DNA of 64,000 bases, taken from positions 128,001 to 192,000 of the forward strand of contig CAXXET010000008.1 of the NCBI GenBank assembly GCA_963666115.2, in the 5' to 3' direction. Shown in pieces: positions 3,668-63,200 of this stretch. Below the pieces are notes generated by a model. The model made no database searches and had not been told where the DNA came from. It saw nothing but the letters and a program-made list of their open reading frames with translations. This DNA is from Dehalococcoidia bacterium. Lineage in GTDB: Bacteria > Chloroflexota > Dehalococcoidia > UBA6926. The translations under genes and the position numbers were made by a program. Position 1 is the stretch's first letter; each line of letters opens with the position of its first letter.

Positions 3668-3685
3668 CTGCTACAATCGCGGGGC
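3668..3685 (+). repeat. 18-bp direct repeat, copy 1 (ctgctacaatcgcggggc, contains TACAAT)
   Basis: Identical to 5517-5534; the pair brackets the 585-aa gene. Confidence 0.85.
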
Positions 3686-3748
3686 GCGGGAATGACGGGG
3701 GGCCGGGGGATTGGCGGTATGCTTTTGTGGAGGTGAAAGGGGGTTGCA

Positions 3749-5506
3749 ATGATGATGAATTCCGGCGGGCGGCGCTATTCCGAGTGGTTCGCCGCGCTTA
3801 GCAATAGGCATAGCAAGGAGGTGGCGCGCTGGGCCCTCGACCATCGACGTGATGTGTCCGAGGATGCCCGCAACCACCTGAATGAGGCGATCAGCATGGA
3901 CGTCCGCCTCAACGGGTTCAGGGGGGCAAAGGCGCCCGATGCGCCAGTAGAGATCCTGGTGAATCCCGTAAGCGCTGCGGCTCGCGCGAATGGACGGGTG
4001 GCGAATGCAGTCTTTGGGGTTTGGTGGGAATCAAAGGTCGAGTTAAAACGACTGATCACGGATGCCCTCCTAAAAGACATGGGGGAACGCGAATTCAAAC
4101 TTGAGGGAGGGGAGCCAACGCAAGAGGAATTCGAGGAACACCTCAACGCGGCCGCCGACGCGGTGCTGGCAGAGAATCCATCTCTTGAGGAGCACGAGGT
4201 CCGGTTGATGGCGTATCTGACGGGAGACCAGGCCGACGTCAGCTACCGCGACTGGCTGCATGACACGACCGCTGCGGAAAACGCCATGATGGAGGAGGCG
4301 CTTGGGGAGGGGGAGCTTGTTACCTCGGCGGATGGGGAGCGGGTGTTCGCTAGCGTGATGGAGGGGATGGCCTCGCTGCCCGCCGACGCGCCGGATTGGG
4401 ACGCGCCGTTCTTCCGGCTTGCGCATCGTCTTGAGGAGTTGCGCACGGGCAAGCTGGATGAGCGGGCTGTCGTCGCATTCCTCGAGGAGCGGCTCGCCGC
4501 CATGGTTGAGAGGCACGCGGAGACGCTGCCGTTCTTCGAGTGGGACCCGGCTGAGAAGCTGTCGAATCGATCCGGGCCATGGAGCGATGCCGTCGCGCTC
4601 AGCGAGGCGGTGGATCGCCTGGAGGCGGCGCTGCATGAATTTACGCGCATCCGGGAGATGGGGGCGACTTACAGCGAGGAACGCGAGCGGGCGGATCGTC
4701 GTGTCACTCTGCAAGACGAGATTCTGACTACGCTTGAGGCCATTGAAGTCTCGGCGGCGCCGCCTTCACCGGAGGAGAGTGGGGAGAACGGCGTTGCTGT
4801 TCCTGACGCGAGCGCGGAACTTGCCCAACTCCATGAGCAGGCGGACTCGCTGCAGGAGCAGCGCGACCGGGCCGAACAGGAGCGGGATGATGCGAGGACG
4901 CGAATCGGCGAACTCGAAGCGGAGCGGGACGATGCGGCGCAGACACGCGATGACCTGCGGAAGGAGAATGATGAGCTTCGCCAGCAGAAGGCCGAACTCC
5001 AACGCAACCTGGAGAATATGCGGCTGACGTACATCGATTCCCAGCGCGCCGGCGAGTCCGGGGAGACGGTTCCTGATTTCCAGGACGTTGCCGCAGCGCT
5101 GGACTACGTTGAGGGCCGCTGGCCGGACAAACTGCGCATCGCGCTCAACAGCAGCTCTGACCGCAAGCTGGTTTTTGATCAGCCCAACCAGCTGTACACG
5201 GCGCTGGAGTGGCTTGCGACGGTTTACCGCGATGCCAGGATGGGGGAGCGGACGGACCTGAAGGAATCGCTTGCGGCGGCGTGCAATTGGGACTACGTGC
5301 CGCAACAGTCCGAGGTGACGATGGGGAAGTACCCGTCCTATTACGAGACGGTTGACGATGGCGTCACGTTCCGGCTGGAGCCGCACATCGGACGGGGGAT
5401 CAACCGCGGCACGGGGCAGATTCGCGTGGCGTTCGCGTGGGACGATGAGCGAGAGGTCGTGGTCGTCGGATACGTTGGGCGCCATCAGCACACGGACGCG
5501 AGTTGA
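3749..5506 (+). CDS. Hypothetical coiled-coil protein with C-terminal RelE-like/nuclease-like domain
   Basis: 585-aa ORF; heptad region LAQLHEQADSLQEQRDRAEQ...; C-terminal LEPHIGRG...IRVAFAWDDEREVVVVGYVGRH. Confidence 0.6.
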   Translation: MMMNSGGRRYSEWFAALSNRHSKEVARWALDHRRDVSEDARNHLNEAISMDVRLNGFRGAKAPDAPVEILVNPVSAAARANGRVANAVFGVWWESKVELKRLITDALLKDMGEREFKLEGGEPTQEEFEEHLNAAADAVLAENPSLEEHEVRLMAYLTGDQADVSYRDWLHDTTAAENAMMEEALGEGELVTSADGERVFASVMEGMASLPADAPDWDAPFFRLAHRLEELRTGKLDERAVVAFLEERLAAMVERHAETLPFFEWDPAEKLSNRSGPWSDAVALSEAVDRLEAALHEFTRIREMGATYSEERERADRRVTLQDEILTTLEAIEVSAAPPSPEESGENGVAVPDASAELAQLHEQADSLQEQRDRAEQERDDARTRIGELEAERDDAAQTRDDLRKENDELRQQKAELQRNLENMRLTYIDSQRAGESGETVPDFQDVAAALDYVEGRWPDKLRIALNSSSDRKLVFDQPNQLYTALEWLATVYRDARMGERTDLKESLAAACNWDYVPQQSEVTMGKYPSYYETVDDGVTFRLEPHIGRGINRGTGQIRVAFAWDDEREVVVVGYVGRHQHTDAS

Positions 5507-5516
5507 TGCGTGCATA

Positions 5517-5534
5517 CTGCTACAATCGCGGGGC
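5517..5534 (+). repeat. 18-bp direct repeat, copy 2 (likely -10 region of the enoyl-CoA hydratase promoter)
   Basis: Identical to 3668-3685; followed by a dRS3-like palindrome at about 5549-5571. Confidence 0.8.
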
Positions 5535-5583
5535 ACGGAAGGTTGTAGGTTCCCGCTTTCGCGGGAATGACAGGGGGTTATTA

Positions 5584-6486
5584 ATGACGACGCAAGGGAA
5601 TCGGCCGGCGGAGCCTGTGGATGATGAGAGCGGGGGGCGGCCTGTTTTGTATGAGACGGTCGAGGAGGGGAGCATCGCTGTCATTACGCTGCATCGGCCT
5701 GGGGTGCTCAATGCTATCAACGGGGCGTTGACGTCCGCGCTCACGGATTATTTGGCGCAGGCCGAGGCGGATGAGAACGTGCGCGTCGTGATCATTCGCG
5801 GGGCGGGGCGGGCGTTCTCGGCCGGCGGCGACATTACGGAGTCGTCTCGCCGCATCCTCGCCAACGATGAATCGCTGGAGCGCGCGACGCCCGGGGCGGC
5901 GCACATCGCGGTGTGGGAGCTGTCCAAGCCGGTGATCGCCGCCGTACACGGGTACGCGATCGGGCTCGCGTTCGAGCTGGCGGGGGTGTGCGATTTCACG
6001 GTGCTGGCGGAGGACGCGAAGGTGGGGGAAATCCAAATCCGGCACGGGTACGGGCCGCCGGTGCTGATGACGCCGTACGTGGTGACGCTGAAGCGGGCGA
6101 AGGAGATCCTGCTGCTGGGCGACATGGTGGACGCGCGGGAGGCGCTCGCCATGGGGCTGGTGAATCGCGTCGCGCCGGCGGACAAGGTGATGGATGAGGC
6201 GCTGTCCATCGCGCGGCGCATCGCGGCTTTGCCGGCGGCGACGGTCAGCATGAACAAGGCGCTCATCAACCGCTCGTATGAGGTTGGAGGGTTCCGGACG
6301 GCGTTGAATTATCGCGACGATGAGGCGTTTGCCGATCTGTGGGCGTCATCGCAGCAGGACGCGGAGACGCGGGAACGGCTGCAGGTGCTGCAGGACCGCG
6401 GCTGGGAGGCGTTCCGCAATGAGCGCGACGCGCGGTACCACGGTCGGACGGCGGAGGAAGAGGCGGCGGCGCGGGAGGGGGGCTAA
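5584..6486 (+). CDS. Enoyl-CoA hydratase/isomerase family protein
   Basis: ITLHRPGVLNAI, GAGRAFSAGGDI and KPVIAAVHGYAIG crotonase motifs. Confidence 0.92.
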   Translation: MTTQGNRPAEPVDDESGGRPVLYETVEEGSIAVITLHRPGVLNAINGALTSALTDYLAQAEADENVRVVIIRGAGRAFSAGGDITESSRRILANDESLERATPGAAHIAVWELSKPVIAAVHGYAIGLAFELAGVCDFTVLAEDAKVGEIQIRHGYGPPVLMTPYVVTLKRAKEILLLGDMVDAREALAMGLVNRVAPADKVMDEALSIARRIAALPAATVSMNKALINRSYEVGGFRTALNYRDDEAFADLWASSQQDAETRERLQVLQDRGWEAFRNERDARYHGRTAEEEAAAREGG

Positions 6487-6505
6487 TCCTCCCGTCATTC
6501 CTACC

Positions 6506-6658
6506 GTGGCAACAACCATCATCGGCATCGTAATCGGCGTCGCCGTCGGCCTGCTTTACGGCCTCACGGTGGGGCCGCTGTGGCTGGGGATCATGCTGGG
6601 GACGGGGCTGGGGGTGGCGTTGGTTGTTGTTTTGGAGCGGCGGGGGGTAGTAGGCTAA
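6506..6658 (+). CDS. Small two-TM membrane protein (50 aa)
   Basis: GTG start; hydrophobic IIGIVIGVAVGLLYG...LWLGIMLGTGLGVALVVVL; flanked by 11-bp direct repeat ggctaatcctc (6481-6491, 6653-6663). Confidence 0.5.
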   Translation: MATTIIGIVIGVAVGLLYGLTVGPLWLGIMLGTGLGVALVVVLERRGVVG

Positions 6659-6663
6659 TCCTC

Positions 6664-13626: not shown

Positions 13627-13685
13627 ATAGGGGAAAGGGTACTCCGTACGGGGGCAGACGGCAACATGGGGGGCTCCGGGCATGG

Positions 13686-13722
13686 GGGTTCACCCTTCGA
13701 CAGGCTCAGGGTGAACGGGGGG
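13686..13722. repeat. REP-like palindrome (cccttcgacaggctcagggtgaac family)
   Basis: Same motif at about 24985, 37921, 38982 and 48840 (inverted). Confidence 0.7.
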
Positions 13723-13749
13723 GTCATTGAGGCTTTGGATTCTTCCCGG

Positions 13750-13776
13750 TAGTCTACCGCCTACTCCGCCGCGAAC
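13750..13776 (+). repeat. 27-bp copy of the 3' end of the RND permease gene
   Basis: tagtctaccgcctactccgccgcgaac is identical to 45648-45674. Confidence 0.85.
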
Positions 13777-13972
13777 ACCGAGACCTGCCAGCCCCGCCGG
13801 TCAGGGTAGCGGCGGAGTGACTCCATACCCTGCCAAGCCCTTGTATAGTGAGTGTGAACGAGAGAAATCCGGATGAGGCGATGCGAGTAATTGCAGCAGA
13901 TACCAGGGAGACACCAGCGGACACTGGAGCGAATGCGATCAAGCCCCACGCCTGTGGACATGGAGAGGGCTG

Positions 13973-14203
13973 ATGCTTGAATACAAGGGGTACGTCGGCG
14001 AGGTGGTCTATGACGATGAGGCCGAGGTTCTGCACGCCAGGGTCATCAACAGCGGCCCATACTCGATAGCCAATGCCGAGGCGACCGACGTGGAGGGCAT
14101 CAAGCGTGAGTTCCGCGTCTCGATCGATGTCTATCTTGCCGGCTGCGCCGAGCTTGGAATCGAGCCGATCAAGCCCATTGCAGTTCCCGTTGCGTCCGGT
14201 TAA
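13973..14203 (+). CDS. hicB: HicB-family antitoxin (short, no recognisable hicA)
   Basis: MLEYKGYVGEVVYDDEAEVLHARV...FRVSIDVYLAGCAELGIEP. Confidence 0.75.
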   Translation: MLEYKGYVGEVVYDDEAEVLHARVINSGPYSIANAEATDVEGIKREFRVSIDVYLAGCAELGIEPIKPIAVPVASG

Positions 14204-14260
14204 GGCGCCCCATCACCCCTCCCCAAACAACCCCCCCTCACCCCAGAACCGGCGCCAACG
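14197..14260 (+). repeat. Left direct repeat of the EcoRII cassette (PIG-L 3'-end sequence)
   Basis: Core tcacccctccccaaacaaccccccctc is identical at 14213, 17181 and 46308. Confidence 0.85.
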
Positions 14261-14322
14261 GGCGGAAGCGCTTGGGAGTGCTCACGCTGGCCTCGTCACC
14301 TTGGGGCTGGAGGAGATGGCGC

Positions 14323-15533
14323 TTATTGGAGTAGCCTCAAATCGCCAAGAAAGCTCTCCAGAGTCTGTAGATGCGGCCGGATGCTGGACGAATAGCTGTC
14401 GTGCAAAGACTTCGGCACAACAAGGCTCAGATTGGCCTCCTGAATCTCCCTGAACTGATTGTCAGACAAGCCGGGTTGCAGAGTGAGAACGTGCTTGTTC
14501 GGAATTCTGGCTGCCTCCTGCATTATTTGGCGCCAACGGTCGCGCAACGTCGTCTTCACAGCCAACATTCGCAGCCGATTGCCGGGAAAGGCAGAGTCAT
14601 GATATGAGGCGGCGCTTGGGAATAGAAAGTCCGGTTCACGCTTGTCTTCAGTGCGCTGCTTGTAGTCGAAGGTGGTTCCTTCCAGGAAGTTCTCTTCCAG
14701 GAGGATTTGCCTCACATTTAGTTCTAACGCCCCGCCTGCGCGAGACCGGCGTCTCTGCAACACAGACTGGGCGTGCCTGCGAAATTCAGCCATAGTCCTC
14801 GTAGCCCTCCTTAACCCTGGGCAACTCTACGGCCTCTTCAAGGCTGTCAGTTAGCCTATGCTGGCAGTCCCATCGGGTTGTGAGTCTTTCTATCAACGTC
14901 GTCGAATGCGCCGGGCCTCAACTCCAATACCTTACCAAGAAGCTCATTTCCCGAAGGATAGTTCTCAAGCCATTCTGATGGCAGTTCGTCGACGGAGAGT
15001 ACGCAGCCGCTCCTTCCTGCTCGATAGCTGCCGTCTCTCGACCACGTGCGAGGCATACCGGGTTCAACCGGGCCCATCAGTTCGGTAACCAGGTCCTCTT
15101 CCGTGGCGTAGTCGCACACCCAGACTTGGCAGCGCGGACTGCCGTTGCCAGAGGCTCCGTGAAAGGCGAAGACTGTCAGTGCCCCGGTGCTCTCCGGATC
15201 CAGGAGTGGGCTGGATGCGCCACCCCAATTCGTAATCCGTGTCTCATTGCGCGTCCTTCCTTGCGTCACCTTGTTGTTGTACCAGGTGGCCGTCACAGTT
15301 CTGAAATCGGCATGGCTGTCAATCGCAACATCGAACTGAATCTTGGGGTTATGCACTTCGGGGCTGTGCAACTCAGGCAGGAAACTGAACATCGTCTGAT
15401 TCGGAACCAGCAAACCTGCCTGATGGCTGTCATTGGCCTGGGTATCGTTGGCCGATAGACGTTTGGCCCACAGAAAAGTAGCCTGCTCCGCTTGCTCCTC
15501 AAGCCAATCACCCAGATACTGTATCGGCATCAC
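14323..15533 (-). CDS. EcoRII-like type IIE restriction endonuclease, split by two +1 frameshifts (about 14797 and 14889)
   Basis: N-terminal KRLSANDT..NDSHQAG effector domain; C-terminal RRRSRAGGALE, EPDFLFP, MLAVKTTLRDRWRQI; the intervening frame reads DRRLTTRWDCQHRL...LEEAVELPRVKEGY. Confidence 0.8.
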
Positions 15534-15985
15534 AGCCCTCCAATTTCATGATCCGGCGTGTCGCCATTCAGCCATTCTTCGATCTCATCCAACAATCGAT
15601 CCAACGGCTTCCGAGTCTTACCTTTCAGGGCGCATTCCCAAACGCGGAGTTGTCGCCAGCCTTGGTGGGCAATCGATTGCCGTACTACTGTATCGCGATT
15701 CACTGAGGAGCCGATCTTTTCCCGCCAGAACCTCTGATTTGTCGATGGCCACTTGAAGAGATGGCAGCCGTGGGCATGCCAGAAACAGCCGTGAACGAAG
15801 ATCACGGCTGTTCTTGAAGCAAAAACCAGATCCGGTCTGCCGACCACGTTATTGGCATAGAGCCGGTACCGGAAGCCTCTACGATGCAGGCCGCGTCGAA
15901 TCAGTAGCTCTGGCTTCGTGTTCGAGCCCTTGATCCCCGCCATCATGCGGCTGCGGGTCTCGGTGTCTACGACGTCAGGGGCCAT
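15530..15985 (-). CDS. vsr: Very short patch repair endonuclease
   Basis: RSRMMAGIKGSNTKPE, GRPDLVF, FVHGCFWHAH, LRVWEC. Confidence 0.95.
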   Translation of the reverse strand: MAPDVVDTETRSRMMAGIKGSNTKPELLIRRGLHRRGFRYRLYANNVVGRPDLVFASRTAVIFVHGCFWHAHGCHLFKWPSTNQRFWREKIGSSVNRDTVVRQSIAHQGWRQLRVWECALKGKTRKPLDRLLDEIEEWLNGDTPDHEIGGL

Positions 15986-16009
15986 GTCACGGCCTTTCCG
16001 GAACCTGGC

Positions 16010-17134
16010 TCACCGGGAAAGTAGCGGGGATAGGGCATGTTCCGCGACGGCCTCCCCTACGGTGGCAACGACTGCGTTTCCAAATTGCTTGTATGCTTGC
16101 GTGTCAGAAACCGGAATCCTGAATTTGTGAACGGCTGTATCAAAGCCCATGAGGCGTGCGCATTCCCGAGGTGTCAGACGGCGCGGGTTGCCCCTTCCTC
16201 GCTTGACGAGGATTTCAGACCCGTCCTTGTAGTATCGTGCCGACATAGTTCGTGCAACATCTTCGGGCCCCACCAGACCAAAGCCAAAGCCATTGCCCCG
16301 CTTCCTGTGCTTTTCGGCGTAGTCACGCAGATAACGCCACAGGTGGTTAGTCAGAACGTACCGCCTATGCACTTTGCCTGATTTTTCCGTATATCGCTCC
16401 TCGCGTTCCTCGGTTCCATCCTCAGGGTGAAGTATCGCATTTAGCCTTGGTCCGTGATGCGGGTCCGGTACGTTCATCGTGTCGAGCGAGATGCCGTCGT
16501 TGTCCCGATAGCCAACAATGAAAATACGCTCGCGATGCTGTGGCACATACCCTTTGGCGTCTATCACCCGATAAGTGATGTTGTAGCCGAGCTCAACTTG
16601 CAGCGTCTCGCGAATAATCCTGAAAGTGTTTCCCTTGTCGTGATTGACGAGATTCTTGACGTTCTCCAGGACAAACATCTTGGGGCGATGGTGAGCAATG
16701 ACCCGGGCCGTATCGAAGAAGAGGGTCCCCTGAGTGTCACAGCGGAATCCTGTGGGCTGACCAATCGCGTTCTTCTTGCTGATGCCTGCTATGGAGAAGG
16801 GCTGGCAGGGAAAGCCCGCAAGTAACACGTCGTGCTGGGGGATTTGCTCCTCGCGGACTTGCCTGATGTCCCCCGCCATCATGTGACCGAATGGATCCTC
16901 GAAATTTGCGCGGTAAGTCCGTTGGGCATTGGCGTCGATTTCGCTGGTGAATACGCACTGCCCGCCAGCGATGTCGAAGCCTCGCCGAAGTCCGCCAATC
17001 CCTGCAAACAGATCGATGAAACGGAATTGAGGCCTTGATCGTCCGTCCGTCCCACTCAAACCGCAATGCCTCCCTGTCAGGTTAGTGAACGCCTGTTCTT
17101 TGGAAATGTTACCACACATTCGCGGCATTTGCAT
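16010..17134 (-). CDS. dcm: DNA cytosine-5 methyltransferase (Dcm/M.EcoRII-like); start uncertain
   Basis: [54 protein letters not shown]. Confidence 0.92.
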
Positions 17135-17180
17135 CCTTCGTCCGTAGCCAGCTGCACTTGACCGGTAAGGCCGCCCCCCC

Positions 17181-17545
17181 TCACCCCTCCCCAAACAACC
17201 CCCCCTCCAATCCCCCCCCCGCCATCCAAAACCGCCGGCGCCAACCGCGCATAAAGCTCCCGCGGCGCCAGCCGCCTCCGCAGCCCAGGCGAAAGCAGCT
17301 CCCACCGCCGCATCCACCAGGCCCCCTCCCTCAACGCCGTCGTATAGCACTGCGCAGCCTCCAGCCGTTGCGCCAGCACGCTCCGCACGTCAATCGCCGT
17401 CGTCGGTCGTTGCGATTCCTGCGCGCTCCGCAGCGCGTCGCCCATGTCGTCCAGGTTCTTGCTCCGGGCCAGCCGTCCAATACGCAGCCGCACCGATGAG
17501 GATGTGGGCGAGGTCGCCCGTTGCGCCGGTGGCGTCGAAGGGGGG
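17181..17545 (-). pseudogene. Divergent, internally deleted 3' fragment of the PIG-L deacetylase gene
   Basis: Encodes FDATGATGDLAHILIGAA then LRIGRL...[13 protein letters not shown]...[23 protein letters not shown], paralogous to 46308-46760. Confidence 0.85.
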
Positions 17546-17627
17546 TGTGACATGGGGGGTTGCGCGGTTGGGACGGGTGTTCTTATTTTGGTGGCATTGA
17601 GCGGCGCATGGCATGGAGGTGAGGCGG

Positions 17628-18518
17628 ATGGCTCTTACATTGACGGAGGCGGGGAAGCTTTCGAACGACGTTCTGCTGCAGGGCGTGATCGAGACGGTGA
17701 TCAAGGACAGCCCGGTTTTGCAGACGCTGCCGTTCATCGAGATCGTCGGGAACGGCCTGACGTACAACCGGGAGCGGACGGCGCCGACGGTGGGGTTCTA
17801 CGGCGTGGGCGACACGTGGTCGGAAAGCACGCCGCGGTTCACGCAGTTGACGGCGACGCTCTCAATCATGGGCGGCGACGCGGACGTGGACAACTACCTG
17901 CTGACGACGCGCTCCAACATCCAGGACCTGGAGGCGGCGGTGGTGCAGTTGAAGGCGCGGGCGCTCCAGCACAAGTTCGAGGACACGTTCATCAACGGGG
18001 ACACGGACAGCGATTCGGACTCGTTCGACGGCGTCGGCGTGCTGGCGACGGGGGACCAGGCGCTCTCGATGGGGGCGAACGGGGGCACGCTGACGCTGGA
18101 CAAGCTGGATGAGTTGATCGACGCGGTGCAGGGCGGGAAGCCGGACATGATCCTGATGAGCCGCCGCTCCCGCCGCGCGCTGAATTCGCTGGCGCGGAGC
18201 TCCGGCTCGGGCATCGTCGTGTCTGACCGCGATGAGCTTGGGCAGATGGTCCAGTACTACGACGGCGTTCCCATCGGCGTGAACGACTGGATCTCGGACG
18301 CGCAGACGGTGGGGACAAGCTCGGACTGCTCGACGATCTTCGCGTACCAGGCGGGCGAGGGCGGCCTGGTGGGGTTGACGTCGCCGGGCGGCTTGCAGGT
18401 GGAGCGCGTGGGGAGCCTGGAGACGAAGGACGCGCGGCGGACGCGGATGAAGTGGTACGTGGGGATGGCGTTGTTCAATGCGGCGAAGCTGGCGAAGTTG
18501 GAGGGGGTTCGCGGGTAG
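17628..18518 (+). CDS. Phage major capsid protein (HK97-like)
   Basis: MALTLTEAGKLSND...LPFIEIVGNGLTYNRE, GGDADVD, FINGD...FDG, LDKLDELID, YDGVPI; RBS GGAGGTGA. Confidence 0.85.
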   Translation: MALTLTEAGKLSNDVLLQGVIETVIKDSPVLQTLPFIEIVGNGLTYNRERTAPTVGFYGVGDTWSESTPRFTQLTATLSIMGGDADVDNYLLTTRSNIQDLEAAVVQLKARALQHKFEDTFINGDTDSDSDSFDGVGVLATGDQALSMGANGGTLTLDKLDELIDAVQGGKPDMILMSRRSRRALNSLARSSGSGIVVSDRDELGQMVQYYDGVPIGVNDWISDAQTVGTSSDCSTIFAYQAGEGGLVGLTSPGGLQVERVGSLETKDARRTRMKWYVGMALFNAAKLAKLEGVRG

Positions 18519-19124
18519 ATGAGCACGTTGACGGAGGTGCGGACGCGGGTGCGGCGCGACCTGCACGACGAGGATTCGACGGGGTACCGCTGGACGGACG
18601 ACGTTCTGGACCGGCACATCGAACGCGCGCTGGCCAAGGTGTCAACGGTCGCGCCGCAGGAGAAGACGGCGTCCAGGACTTTGGCGGGCGGGAGCCGGGA
18701 GATCTCCGTCGCCGACCTGACGGACCGCGTGGCAGTGGAGGCGGTGGAGTATCCCGTGGGCCACTACCCGCCGGCCCGCGTGCGGTTCAACCAGTGGGGC
18801 GACACGCTCCTGCTGAGCCTGCCCGCGGCGCCGGCGGGCGGGGAGAGCGTGACGGTGTACTACGGGGCGCTGCACCGGCTGACGGACAGCGCGTCCACGC
18901 TGCCGGAGTCGCTGGAGGAGCTGGTGATCACGGGGGCGGCGGCATACGCGGCGGTGGAATGGGCGGGGTACGCGGTGAACCGGCTCAACGTCGGGGGGCA
19001 GGACGTGTGGCGGCAGTACCTGACGTGGGGGGAGGAGCGGATGGCGGACTTTGAACTGCAACTTGCGCGAATCGGGCGGCGCTCCGGCTTCCGCCTCCAC
19101 CAACTCTTCAATCCGGACGAATAA
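18519..19124 (+). CDS. Putative head-tail adaptor/connector protein
   Basis: Directly abuts the capsid stop; MSTLTEVRTRVRRDLHD...RWTDDVLDRHI resembles adaptor N-termini. Confidence 0.55.
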   Translation: MSTLTEVRTRVRRDLHDEDSTGYRWTDDVLDRHIERALAKVSTVAPQEKTASRTLAGGSREISVADLTDRVAVEAVEYPVGHYPPARVRFNQWGDTLLLSLPAAPAGGESVTVYYGALHRLTDSASTLPESLEELVITGAAAYAAVEWAGYAVNRLNVGGQDVWRQYLTWGEERMADFELQLARIGRRSGFRLHQLFNPDE

Positions 19125-19139
19125 CAGGAGCGGTCAGTC

Positions 19140-21711: not shown

Positions 21712-21716
21712 CGGCG

Positions 21717-23417: not shown

Positions 23418-23547
23418 GGCGATATGAGAATTCACATCAAAATGGGGCGCCGTTCACGGCGTAGCCTAATGTGCCTCCAACCCGCAGTGAACGCCAATAA
23501 CAAGCAGACGCTGAGGACGTTGGTGGAGGCGGGGATTGAGGGGTAGG

Positions 23548-45697: not shown

Positions 45698-45704
45698 TGA
45701 ACCG

Positions 45705-45935: not shown

Positions 45936-46218
45936 GTAGCAAAGCCTTGTCATCGACGGGCGTAACCGTCACGAGATCATCATCGCTGACAAGGTATGGA
46001 ATGGAATGCTTATCCAGATATGCCTTGACGCTCGTCACACCGCCGGAACTATACAGCGCATTCAGCCCCAATCTGACTGCCTTCACCAACCTCTCGTTGA
46101 CTGCCTCCTCGGTGTCGGCGTATACGCGAATGCTCGTGCCTGGAACAAACGCCACCCATCCTCCGTCTCCGTCGGAATCAAAGCGAAACAGTGACTTCAG
46201 ATCGATATGGAAAAGCAT
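45925..46218 (-). CDS. HicB-like protein
   Basis: DGDGGWVAFVPGTSIRVYADTEEAVNERLVKAV. Confidence 0.55.
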   Translation of the reverse strand: MLFHIDLKSLFRFDSDGDGGWVAFVPGTSIRVYADTEEAVNERLVKAVRLGLNALYSSGGVTSVKAYLDKHSIPYLVSDDDLVTVTPVDDKALLHAS

Positions 46219-46307
46219 GGCCTTATCCTTGGTGCTCCTTTCGTGATGGGGCTGGAAAAGCCCACACGCAATCAACTATACGCGCGTGCCGCAAACCTGT
46301 CACCCGC

Positions 46308-47093
46308 TCACCCCTCCCCAAACAACCCCCCCTCCACCCCCGCCCCATCCCCCGCCGCCGGTATCAACCGCGCAAACAACTCCCGCGGCGCCAACCGCCC
46401 CCGAAGCCCAGGCGAAAGCAGCTCCCACCGCCGCATCCACCAAGCCCCCTCCCTCAGCGCCGTCGTATAGCATCTCGCCGCCTCCCGCCGTTGCGCCAGC
46501 ACGCCGCGCACGTCAACCGCCGTCGTCGGACGCTGCGACTCCTGCGCGATCCGCAGCGCATCCCCCACGTCGCCCAGGCCCTTCCGCCGCGTCAACCTCC
46601 CGATCCGCAGCCGCGCCGCAAGCTGCCGCCGCGCAAACACGGCGGCATACAGCCGCGGCGCGCTGATCCCCGTCATCGACCCCACCGCCTGCAAGGTAGC
46701 CGCCCCAATCAGGATATGCTCGAGGTTCCCCGTCGCCCCCGTCGCATCGAAGGTGATGACAACGTCCGGACGAAGTCCGCGCAGTTCCGCGTGGATAGAG
46801 TTCGCGAGGTGGGGCAGGGAGGGATAAGTTGGCGCCAAAAACGTCTCCGCCGTAATCCCCAGCACGTCCGCCGCCGCCCCCAGCTCCGCCAGCCGCTGCG
46901 CCGACGGCCTCCCGTCCGCCTCCGGCCCAAACGGCCCGTAGATGACGTGAACGTCGTGCCCGCGTGATGCGTAGAGAGCCAGCGTCCCCCCGATGATGAA
47001 CGTCTCATCGTCCGGGTGGGCAAGCACGGCGACGATCGTGCGCGGCCCCGCCGCCCCGTGCTCCGCGCGTCCGTTTGAACCTGGCCGGCTCAT
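46308..47093 (-). CDS. PIG-L/LmbE family deacetylase
   Basis: VLAHPDDETFIIGGTLA, LRPDVVITFD. Confidence 0.85.
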   Translation of the reverse strand: MSRPGSNGRAEHGAAGPRTIVAVLAHPDDETFIIGGTLALYASRGHDVHVIYGPFGPEADGRPSAQRLAELGAAADVLGITAETFLAPTYPSLPHLANSIHAELRGLRPDVVITFDATGATGNLEHILIGAATLQAVGSMTGISAPRLYAAVFARRQLAARLRIGRLTRRKGLGDVGDALRIAQESQRPTTAVDVRGVLAQRREAARCYTTALREGAWWMRRWELLSPGLRGRLAPRELFARLIPAAGDGAGVEGGLFGEG

Positions 47094-47212
47094 GCCCGGA
47101 AGCCGTTCACCAGGCCCCGCGCATTCGGCGTGCGGGACGCCTATAATAGACGGAACCCTGACCGGTTTCCGGAACGGGAATCGGACGGGCGCGGCCACTG
47201 AGGGGAGGAAAA

Positions 47213-52831: not shown

Positions 52832-54574
52832 ATGCACCAGCAGGGCGGCACTATCGAAAGTACCCTAAAGAGCATCGAGTCACATCAATTTGTTCTGCCC
52901 GCCATCCAACGGGAGTTTGTCTGGCAGCCTGAGCAGGTATGTGATCTGTTCGACAGCCTGATGCAGGGATTCCCGTTCGGCGAGTTCATGTACTGGAAAG
53001 TTGAGCCGCAGAACTCCAGCCAATACCGCTGGTACGACTTTGTGCGTCACTACCACGAGAAGGATAGCCCTCACTGCCCGGAGTTGGGCATCAGGCACAA
53101 CGAAGCCCTGACAGCCGTGCTGGACGGGCAGCAGCGGCTGACCGCGTTCAACATCGGGCTCAAGGGCTCAATGGCAAAGAAGCTGCCGTACAAGTGGTGG
53201 GCAAGCCCTGATGCATTTCCCAAGCGGGTGCTGGCGCTTGACCTTCTATCGCCCACAGAGCCGGACGAAGACGGCAGGCGCTATCGATTCGAGTTCATTG
53301 ACGAACGCCGCATTGGGATGGAGGACGATCGGCTCTGGTTCCGTGTGTCCGAGATTCTCGGCCTTGACTCCGGGTCACCCATGCTCCAGTGGCTCCTTGA
53401 CAAGGATCTGGATAATGACAGGCTCCATCAAGCCTTTGGCACACTCGACCGTCTGCACCACGTTATTCGTAAAGACCCCGTCATCGCATGGTACGAGGAA
53501 ACGAGCCAGGACATTGAGCGCGTTCTACAGATATTCATCAGGTGCAACAGCGGCGGCACCCCGCTTTCTTACTCCAATCTCCTGTTGAGCATCGCGGTTT
53601 CCCAGTGGGAAAAGCTGGACGCGCGGGCTGAGGTGCATGGACTCGTTGATGAACTCAACGGCATCAGGGACGGATTGCGATTCAATGCCGACTTCGTGCT
53701 GAAGGCCGGTCTGATGCTGACGGACATTGCCAGCGTGGGTTTCCGCGTGGAGAACTTCACGCACGAGAACATGGCCGCACTTGAGAAAAACTGGCAGCGA
53801 CTCAGGACCGCCCTGCTCACAACGGCACAACTCATTGACCGCTTCGGATTTGACTCGCGCACTGTCCGCGCCATGAATGCGCTGCTGCCAATCGCCTACT
53901 ACGTGTACCTGCGGCAATTGCCCGAGAGTTTTGTGACGAGCGACCAATTCCTTGAAGATCGGCGAAGGATCAAGAACTGGCTCACTCGTTCAATCCTGAA
54001 GCAGTCAGGAATCTGGGGCGCTGCCGACGCTCTGTTGACCGCTCTCCGGGAAACTATCCGTAACCTTGGGGAGGCCGGTTTCCCTGCTCATGAAATCGGC
54101 CGGGTCATGGCACAGCGGGGCAGGGGGCTGGAATTCCAGGGCGAGGAGATTGACGACCTCGCGGATATGCGGATTTCCGACTCGCGGACGTTCCCGCTGC
54201 TTTCAATGCTGTTCCCAACTCTTGGTACGCACGGCAGCACCGACATAGACCACGTCTTCCCCAAGAGCAGATTAACGACGACGCAGCTCAACAACATAGG
54301 CATCGAATCCGACACGGCGGAGCGCCTGCAAGACTGGCGTGACCGCCTAGCCAACCTGCAACTCCTCGACTCTACGGTGAACAACGAGAAGCGCGCCGTC
54401 ATGCCGGCCGAGTGGCTCGATACCCACTGCCCCGACCCGCAGTCGCGCCAGGCTTACGTTGATCGTCACCTGTTGGGAGATGTCCCGCAAGAACTGCACG
54501 GGTTCGAGCAGTTCTACGAATCCCGTCGCCAAGCCCTCCGAGACAGGCTCTCCCAACTGGTCAACACTGTTTAG
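52832..54574 (+). CDS. GmrSD-like type IV (modification-dependent) restriction protein, DUF262 plus HNH-like domain
   Basis: LPAIQREFVW, VLDGQQRLT, IFIRCNSGG, DIDHVFP, ANLQLL...N. Confidence 0.85.
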   Translation: MHQQGGTIESTLKSIESHQFVLPAIQREFVWQPEQVCDLFDSLMQGFPFGEFMYWKVEPQNSSQYRWYDFVRHYHEKDSPHCPELGIRHNEALTAVLDGQQRLTAFNIGLKGSMAKKLPYKWWASPDAFPKRVLALDLLSPTEPDEDGRRYRFEFIDERRIGMEDDRLWFRVSEILGLDSGSPMLQWLLDKDLDNDRLHQAFGTLDRLHHVIRKDPVIAWYEETSQDIERVLQIFIRCNSGGTPLSYSNLLLSIAVSQWEKLDARAEVHGLVDELNGIRDGLRFNADFVLKAGLMLTDIASVGFRVENFTHENMAALEKNWQRLRTALLTTAQLIDRFGFDSRTVRAMNALLPIAYYVYLRQLPESFVTSDQFLEDRRRIKNWLTRSILKQSGIWGAADALLTALRETIRNLGEAGFPAHEIGRVMAQRGRGLEFQGEEIDDLADMRISDSRTFPLLSMLFPTLGTHGSTDIDHVFPKSRLTTTQLNNIGIESDTAERLQDWRDRLANLQLLDSTVNNEKRAVMPAEWLDTHCPDPQSRQAYVDRHLLGDVPQELHGFEQFYESRRQALRDRLSQLVNTV

Positions 54575-56426: not shown

Positions 56427-56798
56427 TCAGCCCCCGTTGCTGAGAACGCCCTCAACCCTGTCAACAAACTGGGCGACCTGTTCGAGACTATCCCGGATGT
56501 CCCGGCTAGTGAACTGACCCTCGTAGAAGTTCTCATGCAACCCGCCCGCCTCGTTGAAGAGGGTGCGGTAACTGTTATCGTCCGTCTCCTCCACGAGCAG
56601 ACTCACCACGCCATACAGGCGGGCATGGCTGTTGTGGTCAAACCCGCGCCGGTCGGCGTAAGCCTTGACCATCTGCGAGGCCGCCCCCCATCCCTTCTCG
56701 GACGCCTGACGGAGATCCTCCGCCTCAAGTTCCACCCAAGCCTGGCCAAGAAACCGCCGGCTCTGCTCCTGGTACCCATTGCTGTCGTGATTCGTCAT
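56427..56798 (-). CDS. PaREP1/HEPN-like protein, copy 1
   Basis: DLRQASEKGWGAA...LHENFYE; TATACT-6nt-ATG. Confidence 0.8.
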   Translation of the reverse strand: MTNHDSNGYQEQSRRFLGQAWVELEAEDLRQASEKGWGAASQMVKAYADRRGFDHNSHARLYGVVSLLVEETDDNSYRTLFNEAGGLHENFYEGQFTSRDIRDSLEQVAQFVDRVEGVLSNGG

Positions 56799-56850
56799 GG
56801 AGACAGTATACGACATGGGCAGACGGGCAGATTCGCCTCTGAGCGCGGCT

Positions 56851-57228
56851 CTATCCGCTGCCGTTCCGCCCGTTCAGCAAGCCCTCCACCTTATCAACGA
56901 ATTGCGCGACGCTTTCCAGGCCGCCCTGCACATCCCGACCGGAGAGCTGTCCCTCATAGAAGTTAGTGTGGAGGCCGCCGGCGTCATGGAAAAGGACGCG
57001 GAAGCTGTCATCGTCCGTCTCGGCGACCAGGCGGCTGACAGCGCCAAAGAGGAGGCCGTGACTATCGTGATTCAGACCCCGCAGAACCGCGTAGGCCTTG
57101 ACCATCTGGGAAGCAGCCCCCCACCCCTTCTCGGAGGCCTGGTGGAGGTCTTCGGCTTCCAACTCCACCCAAGCCTGGTCAAGAAACCGCCGCCCCTGCC
57201 GCTGGTACCCATTGCTAAAGCTAGTCAT
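56851..57228 (-). CDS. PaREP1/HEPN-like protein, copy 2
   Basis: DLHQASEKGWGAA...LHTNFYE; TATACT-6nt-ATG. Confidence 0.8.
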   Translation of the reverse strand: MTSFSNGYQRQGRRFLDQAWVELEAEDLHQASEKGWGAASQMVKAYAVLRGLNHDSHGLLFGAVSRLVAETDDDSFRVLFHDAGGLHTNFYEGQLSGRDVQGGLESVAQFVDKVEGLLNGRNGSG

Positions 57229-57287
57229 AGGCACAGTATACGGGATGCGGAACACGCGGACGGGCAGATTCGCTTGTGAGCGTTGTG

Positions 57288-57668
57288 TTATCCGCTGCCG
57301 TTCCGCCCATTCAGCAGCCCCTCAACCTTGTCAACAAACTGCGCGATCTGCCCCAGCGTTGCCCGCAGCACTTCTTTATCCATGCCGCCTTCGTAATAGT
57401 TCACGTGGAGGCCGCTGGCAGTGCTGAAGAGAGTGCCGATGGACGTGTCCCCCGTTTCGCGCGCGAGGGCGCTCGCAACGCTGAAGAGGAAGCCATGCGT
57501 ATCATGTCGGAGCCCGCGTTCCTCCGCCGCAGCCTTCACGAGTTGGGCCGCCGCCCCCCATCCCTTCTCGGAGGCCTGGTGCAGATCATCCGCCTCCAGT
57601 TCCACCCAAGCCTGATCGAGGAATACGCGCCCCTGCTGAGCATAAGTCATCCCATAACCATTCATCAT
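57288..57668 (-). CDS. PaREP1/HEPN-like protein, copy 3
   Basis: DLHQASEKGWGAA...LHVNYYE; TACACT-6nt-ATG. Confidence 0.8.
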   Translation of the reverse strand: MMNGYGMTYAQQGRVFLDQAWVELEADDLHQASEKGWGAAAQLVKAAAEERGLRHDTHGFLFSVASALARETGDTSIGTLFSTASGLHVNYYEGGMDKEVLRATLGQIAQFVDKVEGLLNGRNGSG

Positions 57669-57714
57669 CGAAACAGTGTACCTGAGTCTGCTCTACGTTC
57701 CCGGAGGCACGGCG

Positions 57715-58095
57715 TTATCCGCTGCCGTTCCGACCGTTCAGCAGCCCCTCGATCCTCTCAACAAGCAGCTCGATGTCCTGCAGCGCGGCGCGGATGTCCT
57801 CCGCGCTGATCCCCCCTTCATAGTAGTTGACGTGGAGTCCGCTCGCGATCTGAAACCCGCGGCGAATGACGCCGTCGCCGTCGTCCTCGCCGATGATGCC
57901 GGTCGCGCGAAACAGCAGCCCATGAGTGTCATGCGGGATGCCGCGCTCATCCGCCGCAGCCTTCACCAGTAGCGCCGCCGCGCCCCACCCCTTCTCCGCC
58001 GCCTGCGACAGATCCCCCCGCGCAAGCTCATCAAAAGCCTGCGACAGGTAAACCCGCCCCTGCTCCGCATAGGTCACGCCGTAGCCATTCATCAT
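57715..58095 (-). CDS. PaREP1/HEPN-like protein, copy 4
   Basis: DLSQAAEKGWGAA...LHVNYYE; TATACT-6nt-ATG. Confidence 0.8.
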   Translation of the reverse strand: MMNGYGVTYAEQGRVYLSQAFDELARGDLSQAAEKGWGAAALLVKAAADERGIPHDTHGLLFRATGIIGEDDGDGVIRRGFQIASGLHVNYYEGGISAEDIRAALQDIELLVERIEGLLNGRNGSG

Positions 58096-58989: not shown

Positions 58990-60504
<1,515 letters not shown>

Positions 60505-60588: not shown

Positions 60589-60617
60589 AGAATATGCCCC
60601 CCCACCAACCCTGTCAA
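60589..60617 (-). promoter_or_regulatory. Sigma70-type rRNA promoter
   Basis: TTGACA (60617-60612), 17 nt spacer, TATTCT (60594-60589). Confidence 0.85.
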
Positions 60618-60672
60618 CCCCAACCAACCCGTCAACCACGCGGCGCACAGCCACGCGACTACACGGCGCCGC
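60618..60672 (+). repeat. Direct repeat copy 1 (35 bp exact, about 55 bp imperfect) upstream of the rRNA promoter
   Basis: ccccaaccaacccgtcaaccacgcggcgcacagcc is identical at 63143-63177. Confidence 0.85.
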
Positions 60673-61129
60673 GTAGTGGAGTGAACAAGCTCGCGCTGCC
60701 CCCAATTGCCAGCGCGGCGGCAAACAGGCGGGCATCCGCAGTAAGCAGAAGGTACCCGCGTGACACCGCCTCCAGTAGTGCGCTGTCGGTTAGGCCGAAC
60801 CTCTCGAATTCCTCCCGTCGCGCCGCGGTTTGGCTGGCAATGACAATCTCCTCTCCCTGGTCGATCACGCGGCGCAGCAGCGCCAAAAGGCGAGAGCGAT
60901 CCGGCTGGCCATGCTGTGCAAGAAGGTTGCCTGCCTCCGTCAAGGTATTCGGCGTGACCACGATGGGCTCGTGCCCCGAAATGATCCCCCTCAACTCCTC
61001 GAAGTCGTCCGGCGCATAGCCGGAGAGCCGCCGGTGCGTGAGGATAAGATTCCGGTCAAATCGGCCAACGATCAGGAGGACAAGCAGATTCGAATCGATG
61101 AGTATTCTGTTCGCGGCGGGTATGCTCAT
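60659..61129 (-). CDS. PIN-domain protein
   Basis: ILIDSNLLVL, TPNTLTEA, GLTDSA, LLTADARL. Confidence 0.85.
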   Translation of the reverse strand: MSIPAANRILIDSNLLVLLIVGRFDRNLILTHRRLSGYAPDDFEELRGIISGHEPIVVTPNTLTEAGNLLAQHGQPDRSRLLALLRRVIDQGEEIVIASQTAARREEFERFGLTDSALLEAVSRGYLLLTADARLFAAALAIGGSASLFTPLRGAV

Positions 61130-61723: not shown

Positions 61724-61813
61724 GCCCGCCTCGCCACTCCCTCCCAACACACAACCATTCTATAGCAGAGTGTCAGTTGCCCTCACCCGCCCCCCATGTA
61801 TACTGTCCCCACC

Positions 61814-62197
61814 ATGAACGGATACGGCAGAACATACGCAGAGCAGGGCCGCATCTACCTTGCGCAGGCTTATGAGGAGCTTGAGCGGGGCGACCTCCCG
61901 CAGACCGCGGAGAAAGGCTGGGGCGCAGCGTCTCAGCTCGTCAAAGCCGCCGCCGATGAGCGAGGCCTGCCCCATCACTCCCACGGCTTCCTCTTCCGCG
62001 CCGTCGGAGTCCTCGGTGAAGAGCAGGGCGGCGATGTTATCCGGCAAGGCTTCTTCTCCGCGCACGGCCTCCACGGCAACTACTACGAAGGCGGAAGCCC
62101 CGAAGCCGACATCCGAGCCGCCCTAAAAGACGTAGAATCCCTAGTTGAAACAATCGAGGGAATGCTGAACGGGCGCAATGGAGCGACAACTCCCTAG
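61814..62197 (+). CDS. PaREP1/HEPN-like protein, copy 5
   Basis: DLPQTAEKGWGAA...LHGNYYE. Confidence 0.8.
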   Translation: MNGYGRTYAEQGRIYLAQAYEELERGDLPQTAEKGWGAASQLVKAAADERGLPHHSHGFLFRAVGVLGEEQGGDVIRQGFFSAHGLHGNYYEGGSPEADIRAALKDVESLVETIEGMLNGRNGATTP

Positions 62198-62295
62198 CCT
62201 GGCCCTCACCGCCCCGTACACAACCCTCGCCGCGTAAGTAGTAAACAGTGTAGGCTTGGCGGCGAGAACGAGAGGCACGCTCTGATTCCAGATGC

Positions 62296-62673
62296 GTGCC
62301 GGGGCTCAAACACATGAAGCTCACCAAAATAGCAGCCTGGGCAGCCCACCTCTGGGCTTGGGCCGTCGGCCTCTGGATGACCTTCGGCCCCTTCTACAGC
62401 GATGGCGCGACGCTGGTCGAACAGAACGGCGCATACGTTCTCCTGATACTGCTCTTCCCCATTCTGATGTCCGGCATCGCGCTCCTGGCCATCCGCTTCA
62501 TCGATGCCGGACGGGTAGCGCGCAAAGCGCTCCTGTGGACAATAGCCCTGGTTCTCGTGGCCCTCTGCATAGCGACCTATATCTCCCTCTGCATATTCTA
62601 TCTCCCAATGGTGATCGTACTGCTGGTTGTGGCCATACGCGAGGGAGGGCTTACGGCTGTTCGGTGGCGATGA
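62296..62673 (+). CDS. Small four-TM membrane protein
   Basis: Hydrophobic throughout; lies between two near-duplicate HEPN genes. Confidence 0.6.
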   Translation: MPGLKHMKLTKIAAWAAHLWAWAVGLWMTFGPFYSDGATLVEQNGAYVLLILLFPILMSGIALLAIRFIDAGRVARKALLWTIALVLVALCIATYISLCIFYLPMVIVLLVVAIREGGLTAVRWR

Positions 62674-62742
62674 GCGCCATCTCCGCCTCCGGGTCCGACA
62701 CCCCAAACCGCGCCCCCGCCCCCCATGTATACTGTCCCCACC

Positions 62743-63126
62743 ATGAACGGCTACGGCAGGACATACGCTGAACAGGGGCGCATCTACCTTGCCCAGGCTT
62801 ACGAAGAGCTTGAGCGCGGAGACCTCCCGCAGGCCGCGGAGAAAGGCTGGGGCGCAGCGTCTCAGCTCGTCAAAGCCGCCGCCGATGAGCGTGGCCTGCC
62901 GCATCACTCCCACGGGCTGCTTTTCCGGACTGTGGGGGTTCTTACCGAGGAATCCGGAGATGATGCCATTCGCCGGGGGTTTGACTCCGCCAGTTCCCTT
63001 CACGTCAACTACTATGAGGGCGGCGCAGCGAAGGTGAATATCCGCGCAAGCTTGCAGGACGTCGAGTCCCTCGTCGAAACAATCGAAACCATGCTAAACG
63101 GCCACAACGGCGCAACAACTCCCTAG
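62743..63126 (+). CDS. PaREP1/HEPN-like protein, copy 6
   Basis: DLPQAAEKGWGAA...LHVNYYE; 5' half nearly identical to copy 5. Confidence 0.8.
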   Translation: MNGYGRTYAEQGRIYLAQAYEELERGDLPQAAEKGWGAASQLVKAAADERGLPHHSHGLLFRTVGVLTEESGDDAIRRGFDSASSLHVNYYEGGAAKVNIRASLQDVESLVETIETMLNGHNGATTP

Positions 63127-63142
63127 CGCCCCCCGCCGCCTA

Positions 63143-63200
63143 CCCCAACCAACCCGTCAACCACGCGGCGCACAGCCGCGCGAGACTACACTGCGCCGCC
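63143..63200 (+). repeat. Direct repeat copy 2
   Basis: Matches 60618-60672. Confidence 0.85.

Follow-up and report, generated by a model that had tools for sequence, protein, structure and literature searches.

The 64,000-nucleotide window analyzed here (positions 128,001 to 192,000 of contig CAXXET010000008.1, assembly GCA_963666115.2; G000:C8:128001-192000) belongs to a Dehalococcoidia bacterium, G000, whose genome comprises 2.07 Mb in 9 contigs at 63.5% G+C, and it carries defense genes that lie between direct repeats of host sequence. In the reading to which we incline on balance, three of the four repeat pairs that an initial annotation had listed in this window, together with at least three further cases, are defense-gene insertions with target duplication that were made by a host-driven, one-ended route. 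Its two parts differ in weight: it is probable that the inserts are recombinase-free insertions with target duplication, and the specific route, homologous at one end and illegitimate at the other, is a serious candidate to which we give slightly less than even credence. The duplicated target stretch, 18-85 bp long, comes either from a promoter-like region or from a gene end. The phenomenon is the published insertion with long target duplication, here extended to defense genes that are not restriction-modification (R-M) systems; new aspects relative to the known class are the cargo, the reuse of a target and the lineage. The comparison set consisted of 21 further genomes of the same genus, with core genes ~80-85% identical, and is the basis of all tests for empty sites; single-copy empty sites, which the initial annotation had suggested looking for in relatives, were found for sites 1 and 3 of the window, for a site here called b and for an NYN-domain gene elsewhere in the genome.

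The initial annotation had described four unrelated cargo blocks flanked by direct repeats, namely a 585-aa gene (site 1, repeat R1), an open reading frame (ORF) for a 50-aa membrane protein (site 2, R2), an EcoRII-vsr-dcm block (site 3, R3) and a block of PIN- and HEPN-type genes (site 4, R4), and all four pairs are present where it had placed them. R1 is exact over 18 bp at 3668/5517 and R2 over 11 bp at 6481/6653, each with two copies in the genome; R3 is exact over 27 bp inside stretches of ~68 bp (14197-14264) and ~85 bp (17162-17246) that differ by an indel; R4 is exact over 35-36 bp inside 58 bp of 93% identity (60617-60672 / 63142-63199), again with two genomic copies. Chance was modeled with random pairs of 200-bp windows from the same genome at matched spacing, with 1500 draws per spacing. 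An exact shared word of at least 18 bp arises with a frequency of 0.005 per pair, one of at least 27 bp or at least 35 bp with 0.0007, and one of at least 11 bp with 0.04-0.06 (0.007 for 80-bp windows spaced 172 bp, 4000 draws). The R1, R3 and R4 pairs are far beyond chance, at 0.005 or less per site for 18, 27 and 35 bp, and the 11-bp R2 pair is within chance because the window has ~65 gene boundaries. The second copy of the R2 11-mer was found in none of seven relatives' loci, and a small membrane ORF lies downstream of the same enoyl-CoA hydratase gene in six of the seven; the 50-aa ORF is therefore a conserved neighbor and not a cassette. Of the four blocks first proposed, this one drops out, and the PIN/HEPN block proves to have been described too simply, as set out below.

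At site 1 the conserved border is the hydratase gene, which is 78-87% identical at the nucleotide level in 18 of 18 same-genus genomes. The order before it, in all seven relatives' loci aligned, is the motif gtccCTGCTACAATCGCGG, a hairpin resembling repetitive extragenic palindromic (REP) elements and the start codon, and the 585-aa gene is missing from all seven; the motif, with at most one mismatch, occurs in 21 of 21 relatives, mostly beside the hydratase match. G007 offers the empty site, with the same left neighbors (a DarG-like ORF and an Nmad2 gene), one motif copy, the hydratase gene and nothing between, its Nmad2 homologue (74% identical) directly adjoining the single promoter-like copy. 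In G000 the ancestral left flank is kept at the upstream copy, R1a, and the ancestral right flank at the downstream copy, R1b, and bases 3662-3690 are 100% identical to G007 and G012. The two copies match at 34 of 35 positions over the 62-bp target (5517-5578 vs 3668-3702) when a 26-nt hairpin segment found only downstream is skipped, a count read by eye from the sequence, for which automatic local alignment set the gaps differently. These loci indicate that the 585-aa gene is a true insertion. Residues 355-585 of its product match the candidate defense family HEC-07 of PADLOC (E 7.1e-15), and no Pfam family scored above the cut-off for the protein. Elsewhere, the gene has a 47%-identical homologue in G011, with no noteworthy repeats flanking it, and a paralogue on contig C7 of G000. 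The same target holds another cargo in G002, where an Eco29kI-type endonuclease gene and an HTH-methyltransferase gene lie between two 21-bp motif copies 2.3 kb apart, and the same Eco29kI-type cargo is found in G008, with the proximal motif copy diverged. One target, the hydratase promoter-like site, is used recurrently by different cargoes in different species. The R1 segment may be a promoter, given its TGnTAnAAT-like, extended -10-like form and its conservation; a consensus scan called no sigma-70 promoter at either copy. To the left of the Nmad2 gene, a 116-aa ORF within 1814-3050 matches the C-terminal part of the DarG antitoxin (PADLOC, E 2e-23) and overlaps the end of a 307-aa ORF without known family; the two may form a DarTG-like pair beside the Nmad2 gene.

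The EcoRII-vsr-dcm block of site 3 appears to record two successive events. In eight relatives' loci aligned, the TPR and capsid-like genes are ~130-140 bp apart, and a search of 21 relatives across the genus likewise gave matches to both genes at little distance from each other; since these genes are nearly adjacent in relatives, the whole of 13668-17577 is an insertion in G000, ending shortly before the capsid-like gene, which begins at 17613. Within it, a HicB-like gene is 91-95% identical to its counterparts in G003, G005 and G031, where it adjoins the 3' end of a PIG-L gene, and on the other side of the cassette lies a truncated 3' fragment of PIG-L that shares 71-79% identity with relatives' PIG-L genes and overlaps no full-length ORF. 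The true PIG-L locus of G003, G005 and G031 has hicB directly against the PIG-L 3' end with one repeat copy, which is the empty site. Judged from these arrangements, EcoRII-vsr-dcm is a true insertion: in some genome the cassette first went in between hicB and PIG-L, giving a long target duplication, and a piece with the cassette and both flanks afterwards moved to the non-homologous TPR/capsid-like site, making the insertion a nested one. The repeats had originally been taken as copies of neighboring core sequence; they are indeed host-derived, but they do not stem from the present site, having come with hicB and the truncated PIG-L fragment. The two parts of EcoRII lie in different frames (Pfam EcoRII-C, 5.4e-54, at 14323-14793; EcoRII-N, 1.8e-43, at 14856-15533), with the frameshift at 14794-14855 and vsr and dcm apparently intact, and the system is, by its gene content, probably one decaying to an orphan methylase. 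G007 has an EcoRII-type cassette of 69% identity at another place, with EcoRII intact at 403 aa. In metagenome run X1, one contig has hicB (1 difference in 113 positions) followed by capsid-side sequence (14 differences in 358), and between the two, where G000 has 3.3 kb, stand 101 other letters. A donor search of metagenome contigs, made with the HicB-like protein, returned 29 loci, the five closest of which have only hicB in common with the window.

On the rRNA side of the window, upstream of the single 16S rRNA gene (58993-60503, minus strand), relatives' homology to the rRNA promoter region stops at 60600-60621 and the sequence beyond differs between genomes. The 35-bp repeat that had been said to bracket the PIN/HEPN block is real; what it delimits is not one bracketed cassette, as it is interleaved with two more pairs, a and b, in the order R4a, a, b, R4b, a', b' within this hypervariable slot. 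The partner of a is the 3' end of a 121-aa ORF. Four genomes (G002, G005, G018 and G013) have a single b, and three (G000, G007 and G032) have two copies with a HEPN gene between them: the site reads membrane gene, single b, core in G002 and G005, one HEPN gene stands between the two b copies in G007, and small ORFs and a HEPN gene do so in G032. HEPN gene 2 of G000 is 78% identical to the single b-flanked gene of G007, and HEPN genes 1 and 2 are 79% identical to each other. By this comparison the b site qualifies as a further validated insertion case that the initial annotation did not list. For R4 itself, the 15 relatives' loci examined contained no empty site and no counterpart of the right flank of R4b, and R4a could be aligned only partly and loosely to relatives' rRNA-upstream sequence. 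The interleaved order cannot have arisen from independent nested insertions, and it fits two alternative slot alleles placed one after the other, or else a 2-kb duplication with later replacement. Across the 16S rRNA gene from these copies, 56427-58095 holds a tandem array of four PaREP1/HEPN-type paralogues, which are 65-73% identical, repeat with a period of ~430 bp and point the opposite way from those at 61796 and 62725.

A further case lies outside the window. Screening the genome for unique direct repeats brought up a perfect 84-bp pair at G000:C9:38288/39820, enclosing a single NYN-domain gene (Pfam, 1.5e-30) between ftsZ and ispH in an insert of 1448 bp with 56.8% G+C. In 21 of 21 relatives ftsZ and ispH are adjacent with a single 84-bp copy, and the NYN gene is present in none. 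The donor search for this gene in species genomes gave best matches ~60% identical, 12 of 15 loci coming from Dehalococcoidia or Chloroflexota metagenome-assembled genomes, too distant to define the insert ends. The bracketed inserts measure 1.4-2.9 kb for NYN, the 585-aa gene, the R4 block and EcoRII, ~0.5 kb for the HEPN insert of G007 and ~2.3 kb for that of G002. Features of the window and the unconfirmed candidates of the screen are given in Table 1.

Table 1. Features at the repeat-associated sites (positions in the window, unless a contig is named) and other repeat candidates
Feature	Position	Strand	Basis or remark
Nmad2-domain gene, left neighbor of insertion 1	3043..3633	-	Pfam Nmad2, E 1.2e-56
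R1a, upstream copy of the hydratase promoter-like/5' untranslated segment, ancestral left flank	3668..3702	+	18 bp exact with 5517-5534
Cargo 1, 585-aa gene	3749..5506	+	C-terminal half resembles PADLOC HEC-07
R1b, downstream copy, ancestral right flank including REP-like hairpin, leads into hydratase gene	5517..5578	+	Alignment with 7 relatives' loci
Enoyl-CoA hydratase gene, core, right boundary of variable slot	5584..6486	+	Pfam ECH_1, E 1.7e-46
11-bp pair and ~50-aa membrane ORF, not a cassette	6481..6663	+	Conserved neighbor; chance-level repeat
3.9-kb block between the divergent TPR and capsid-like genes	13668..17577		Replaces ~45 nt; only a 10-bp microhomology at its ends
HicB-like antitoxin gene, left flank of EcoRII insertion	13973..14203	+	ORF; named by eye
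R3a, upstream copy of the intergenic segment between hicB stop and PIG-L stop	14197..14264	+	Keeps the hicB-side flank of G003, G005, G031
EcoRII restriction endonuclease gene, split by a frameshift into C-terminal and N-terminal ORFs	14323..15533	-	Pfam
Vsr mismatch endonuclease gene	15530..15985	-	Pfam Vsr, 1e-25
Dcm-type C5 cytosine methyltransferase gene	16010..17030	-	Pfam DNA_methylase, 6e-79, from residue 109 of 446-aa ORF; start approximate, the listed ORF continuing upstream
R3b, downstream copy, PIG-L-side flank kept	17162..17246	+	
Truncated PIG-L 3' fragment, carried with the cassette	17181..17541	-	~82-84% identical to 3' end of resident PIG-L, 46303-46618
Third R3 core copy, 3' end of resident full-length PIG-L	46307..46336	+	PIG-L gene 46308-47246, minus strand, Pfam PIG-L
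R4a, sequence upstream of 16S rRNA promoter and last codons of PIN-like gene	60617..60672	+	
PIN-like gene	60659..61129	-	Named by eye and in the initial annotation; no Pfam match
HEPN-type (PaREP1) gene 1	61796..62197	+	Pfam PaREP1, 7e-16
Repeat a	62204..62241	+	Partner G000:C8:192204-192241, just beyond window end; 84% over 38 bp
Repeat b, fragment of 3' end of portal-like core gene	62675..62720	+	Partner G000:C8:192597-192642; 89% over 46 bp
HEPN-type (PaREP1) gene 2, cargo between b copies	62725..63126	+	Pfam PaREP1, 1.7e-19
R4b, second R4 copy	63142..63199	+	
Dispersed hairpin copies (examples)	5547-5577, 21825-21850, 24651-25105, 32520-32578, 39484-39581		
Further repeat-pair candidates of the screen, unconfirmed	C8:216110/217223; C4:316305/317889; C3:89744/95492		

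As had been claimed, no recombinase or transposase is encoded in the window: none of the 71 ORF translations (0/71) matched a Pfam family of either kind. Elsewhere in the genome there are two tyrosine recombinases, three DDE_Tnp_1 and one TnpB, the PF00589 matches lying only at G000:C4:393394-393900 and C6:475347-475817 and none on the window's stretch of C8. Neither resolvase, rve, Y1, Ku, ATP-dependent ligase nor Cas1 was found in the whole genome, and capture by non-homologous end joining (no Ku, no ATP-dependent ligase), Cas1-type integration and an IS30-like agent (no rve) were rejected on these grounds. The genome does encode RecA and homologues of ComEC and DprA. The ends of six inserts have neither a motif nor a terminal inverted repeat in common, and the observation that the repeats lack a consensus and vary in length is upheld, the duplications ranging from 18 to 85 bp. 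Two of five duplicated segments fold into significant hairpins and the other three fold no better than shuffles, so that hairpin targeting was rejected as a general rule. A dispersed hairpin family with the core TTCCCGC-loop-GCGGGAATGAC followed by a G run occurs throughout the genome in well over 100 copies, and in relatives too; a Y1/RAYT-type transposase for it was looked for in the genome and no Y1_Tnp match was found, and a REP-associated transposase was rejected as the agent.

The comparisons establish the duplications, the empty sites, the division of the ancestral flanks between the two copies, the recurrent use of one target, the transplanted block and the lack of recombinases; the route is a proposal. 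We propose that DNA of a related strain would enter the cell and pair by homology with the conserved gene bordering a variable slot, and that its other end would be linked to recipient DNA by an illegitimate, microhomology-based join falling within the recipient's version of this border. A fragment of the recipient border and the donor border would then flank the donor cargo as direct repeats, and the new gene would be stacked beside the resident gene, which would be kept and not replaced. Promoter capture would be a further consequence: the duplicated hydratase promoter-like segment may drive transcription of cargo that comes to lie behind it. The genus has almost no integrases or transposases, and the recombination and repair machinery of the host must therefore act. 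Illegitimate joining does seem to occur in the lineage, as the EcoRII block indicates with its 10-bp microhomology and truncated PIG-L end, and the X1 contig with its junction of hicB and the capsid side. A one-ended event would account for the variable length of the repeats, the missing consensus, the differing copies and the reuse of a target; for the position at slot borders, these being the hydratase motif, the PIG-L end, the end of the portal gene and the rRNA upstream region; and for the interleaved repeats and an EcoRII block that was transplanted and ends in a truncated gene.

Several observations weigh against this proposal. The NYN insertion fits it poorly, with identical copies, core genes as both neighbors and no alternative allele in 21 relatives, and a staggered break with fill-in is therefore simpler there. 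A donor genome was found for no cargo in the metagenome-contig, species-genome and genus searches. ComEC and DprA are also present in control genomes of species without known natural competence, and DNA uptake is therefore not demonstrated by them. The contiguous R1 duplication of 18-22 bp is under the 30-bp criterion of the published class, a long flanking repeat was not found at EcoRII-vsr-dcm of G007, and the X1 contig, with its 101 intervening letters, is only a candidate for the state before the insertion. Four further suspected variable blocks of the window showed no direct repeat of at least 10 bp at their boundary pairs; of these four blocks, only the 8.5-kb block at 21704-30172 was shown by comparison to be a G000-specific insertion. 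Of the general recombinase-free process at promoters and gene ends envisaged at the outset, recurrence and empty sites find support, but generality does not, in view of these four boundary pairs without repeats.

A true target-site duplication would offer a different route, in which a nuclease of the cargo or the host nicks opposite strands 20-85 bp apart, incoming double-stranded DNA is ligated and the gaps are filled. The two identical 84-bp copies around NYN, between core genes, are what it would leave, and every cargo is a nuclease or a nuclease-linked defense gene, although PaREP1/HEPN and NYN domains are mostly RNases. It is also the favored idea for R-M systems, for which the available text of one study suggests double-strand breakage as a common property (PMC2853133). 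As a route for the inserts at large we nevertheless regard it as unlikely: the genome has no Ku or ATP-dependent ligase for end joining, the copies at other sites differ by 7-11% and by indels, the interleaved repeats of the rRNA-side slot are left unexplained, and a structure-specific cut is not general when only two of five segments fold significantly.

Less probable still is a Campbell-type integration, which the initial annotation had named beside homology-facilitated illegitimate recombination. RecA would here recombine the chromosomal segment with a small circle that bears the cargo plus a single copy of that segment, after excision of the circle between the repeats in another cell. RecA is present, the repeats are direct and host-derived, and identical 84-bp copies would be expected from a circle of the same population; against this, 18-58 bp is short for an efficient RecA crossover, DNA acquired by transformation is linear and single-stranded, and the origin of the first copy would need another explanation. 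The junctions of excised circles, a check already proposed with the initial annotation, were not seen in contigs of two runs, which held small shares of the stretch and, as contigs, cannot show rare forms or exclude such junctions. A virus-like cycle of this kind has been proposed for R-M systems in the available text of PMC2853133. An unrecognized site-specific recombinase or transposase acting in trans, for instance the two Xer-like tyrosine recombinases or the DDE transposases among the two tyrosine recombinases, three DDE_Tnp_1 and one TnpB that the genome encodes, strikes us as very improbable, given repeats of 18-85 bp with no core or consensus, no inverted repeats or common end motif, and none of these genes in the window. 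Finally, it is hard to credit that the repeats arose by chance or through misassembly. Chance suffices for the 11-bp pair, and the dispersed hairpins create many short matches, but exact repeats of 18, 27, 35 and 84 bp have a frequency of 0.005 or less per site, empty sites and structures of the same kind recur in the independent assemblies of relatives, and the repeats are shorter than ordinary reads. The one-ended route remains our preferred explanation.

Insertion with long target duplication of R-M systems is said to have been reported by Nobusato et al. in 2000. The available text of a later study defines the class for R-M systems (Furuta, Abe and Kobayashi, 2010; PMC2853133), with R-M genes, an insert <20 kb, a duplication >30 bp, the lack of mobility genes and a relative's empty site as its criteria; by its account, translation starts or stops often lie within the repeats and naturally competent species supply most of the cases, and it proposes as cause a property common to R-M systems, such as DNA breakage. 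The inserts described here are likewise <20 kb, without a mobility gene in or beside them, and their repeats are unique, with exactly two copies each of the R1 core, R4 and the NYN repeat, the third genomic copy of R3 being explained as the paralogous 3' end of PIG-L. EcoRII-vsr-dcm and the Eco29kI-type pair of G002 and G008 comprise restriction and modification genes, the EcoRII restriction gene being frameshifted. R3 (~68-85 bp), b (46-56 bp), NYN (84 bp) and R4 (58 bp) exceed 30 bp, R4 qualifying on length alone with no empty site found for it, and R1 (18-22 bp contiguous) and the G002 case (21 bp) are below it. Unlike the published class, the HEC-07-like, PaREP1/HEPN and NYN cargoes are not R-M systems, one target takes different cargoes in different species, and the repeat-flanked EcoRII cassette later moved together with its flanks; the non-R-M cargoes therefore speak against an R-M-specific cause. 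[quoted passage not shown]

Among other known systems, the closest in logic are the stacked type VI secretion system (T6SS) immunity genes of Vibrio cholerae, for which the available text of Kirchberger et al. (PMC5361080) proposes homology-facilitated illegitimate recombination, likens the arrays to an integron and cites Rhs C-terminal displacement as giving related displacement arrays. There, too, a conserved border serves as anchor, a new module is added, the old one is pushed aside, remnants of the border are repeated and no integrase is involved; as far as that text goes, however, the conserved 5' part of a single large gene provides the anchor and the arrays share one function, whereas here a promoter-like region, intergenic terminators and the 3' ends of genes act as anchors, the cargoes are unrelated defense genes and everything is known from sequence alone. 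Natural transformation generates merodiploids and tandem duplications in Streptococcus pneumoniae (available text of PMC3784515), again from incoming DNA and host recombination without enzymes of mobile elements, but the duplications described in that text involve large chromosome segments between existing repeats and not short duplications around foreign cargo. Single-gene cassettes gather here at a fixed place by a promoter-like sequence that may express them, as in integrons; in contrast to integrons, the window holds no IntI-type integrase (the two tyrosine recombinases of the genome lie elsewhere), no attC-like sites and no common sequence or fold at the cassette ends, the repeats being copies of the host target. 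The new integron-like process that the initial annotation had put forward is consequently not an integron, failing on integrase and attC, and matches the published insertion with long target duplication instead. Transposons and insertion sequences differ as well, there being no transposase in the window, no terminal repeats and duplications that vary from 18 to 85 bp.

Beyond these cases, the genome-wide count of exact repeats (3704 direct vs 478 inverted) was rejected as a test, as repeat-protein genes and dispersed hairpins dominate it; many of the direct repeats are due to a tandem array of five to six paralogues of Yip1-domain membrane proteins with conserved 76-nt segments (G000:C4:164700-169700). 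A stricter screen for unique repeats retained 10 of 133 pairs and lost R1 and R3 as well, and it is hence incomplete. A 29-bp copy of an hsdM 3' end around a DUF2442 gene (G000:C4:97440/97901) was set aside as unverified, with no clean empty site in 21 relatives. Within the 8.5-kb block, the gene at 25143-26819 encodes a fusion of a DNA methyltransferase with an Mrr-type nuclease domain and has three further G000 copies of 82-86% identity at C6:418377-420031, C4:212023-213650 and C3:89793-93921; this gene itself appears mobile, as relatives carry it at varied places. Between core genes, 52832-54574 holds a restriction endonuclease gene of the GmrSD type (type IV) with no flanking repeat of at least 10 bp. 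Short tandem arrays consist of 22-nt units (21700-21809) and 20-nt units (39484-39723), and a 97-nt direct repeat of 89% identity (21825-21921 / 39543-39639), 17.7 kb apart, encloses variable and core genes. At 45672-46303, the slot that separates PIG-L from an AcrB-type transporter gene holds different alleles across the genus, with two small ORFs of no known family in G000 and hicAB-like genes in G003, G005 and G031. Next to the EcoRII block, 17613-21125 encodes phage-like structural proteins, namely an SU10-type major capsid protein, an SU10 adaptor and a 661-aa protein, with ~80% identity and synteny across the genus, and a portal-like gene (identified by eye only) lies 43 kb from the capsid group at G000:C8:192549-193481, just beyond the window end; these genes look like a domesticated or ancient phage-derived module.

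How defense genes move without an attached mobile element is still poorly explained, and this genus provides a clean natural data set, with 22 genomes, almost no integrases or transposases and several dated events that run from a perfect 84-bp duplication through to diverged ones. Cargoes other than R-M systems and a single target with different cargoes narrow the candidate mechanisms. We suggest, tentatively and with more doubt than confidence, that recombinase-free, integron-like stacking builds the defense islands of the genus, any incoming gene linked to a conserved border, be it a promoter-like region or a gene end, being added beside the residents and the border being duplicated in the process. 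If this is true, the hydratase promoter-like site would be a reusable expression platform for different defense cargoes, and insertion with long target duplication would be a general host-driven route for defense genes and not a property of R-M systems.

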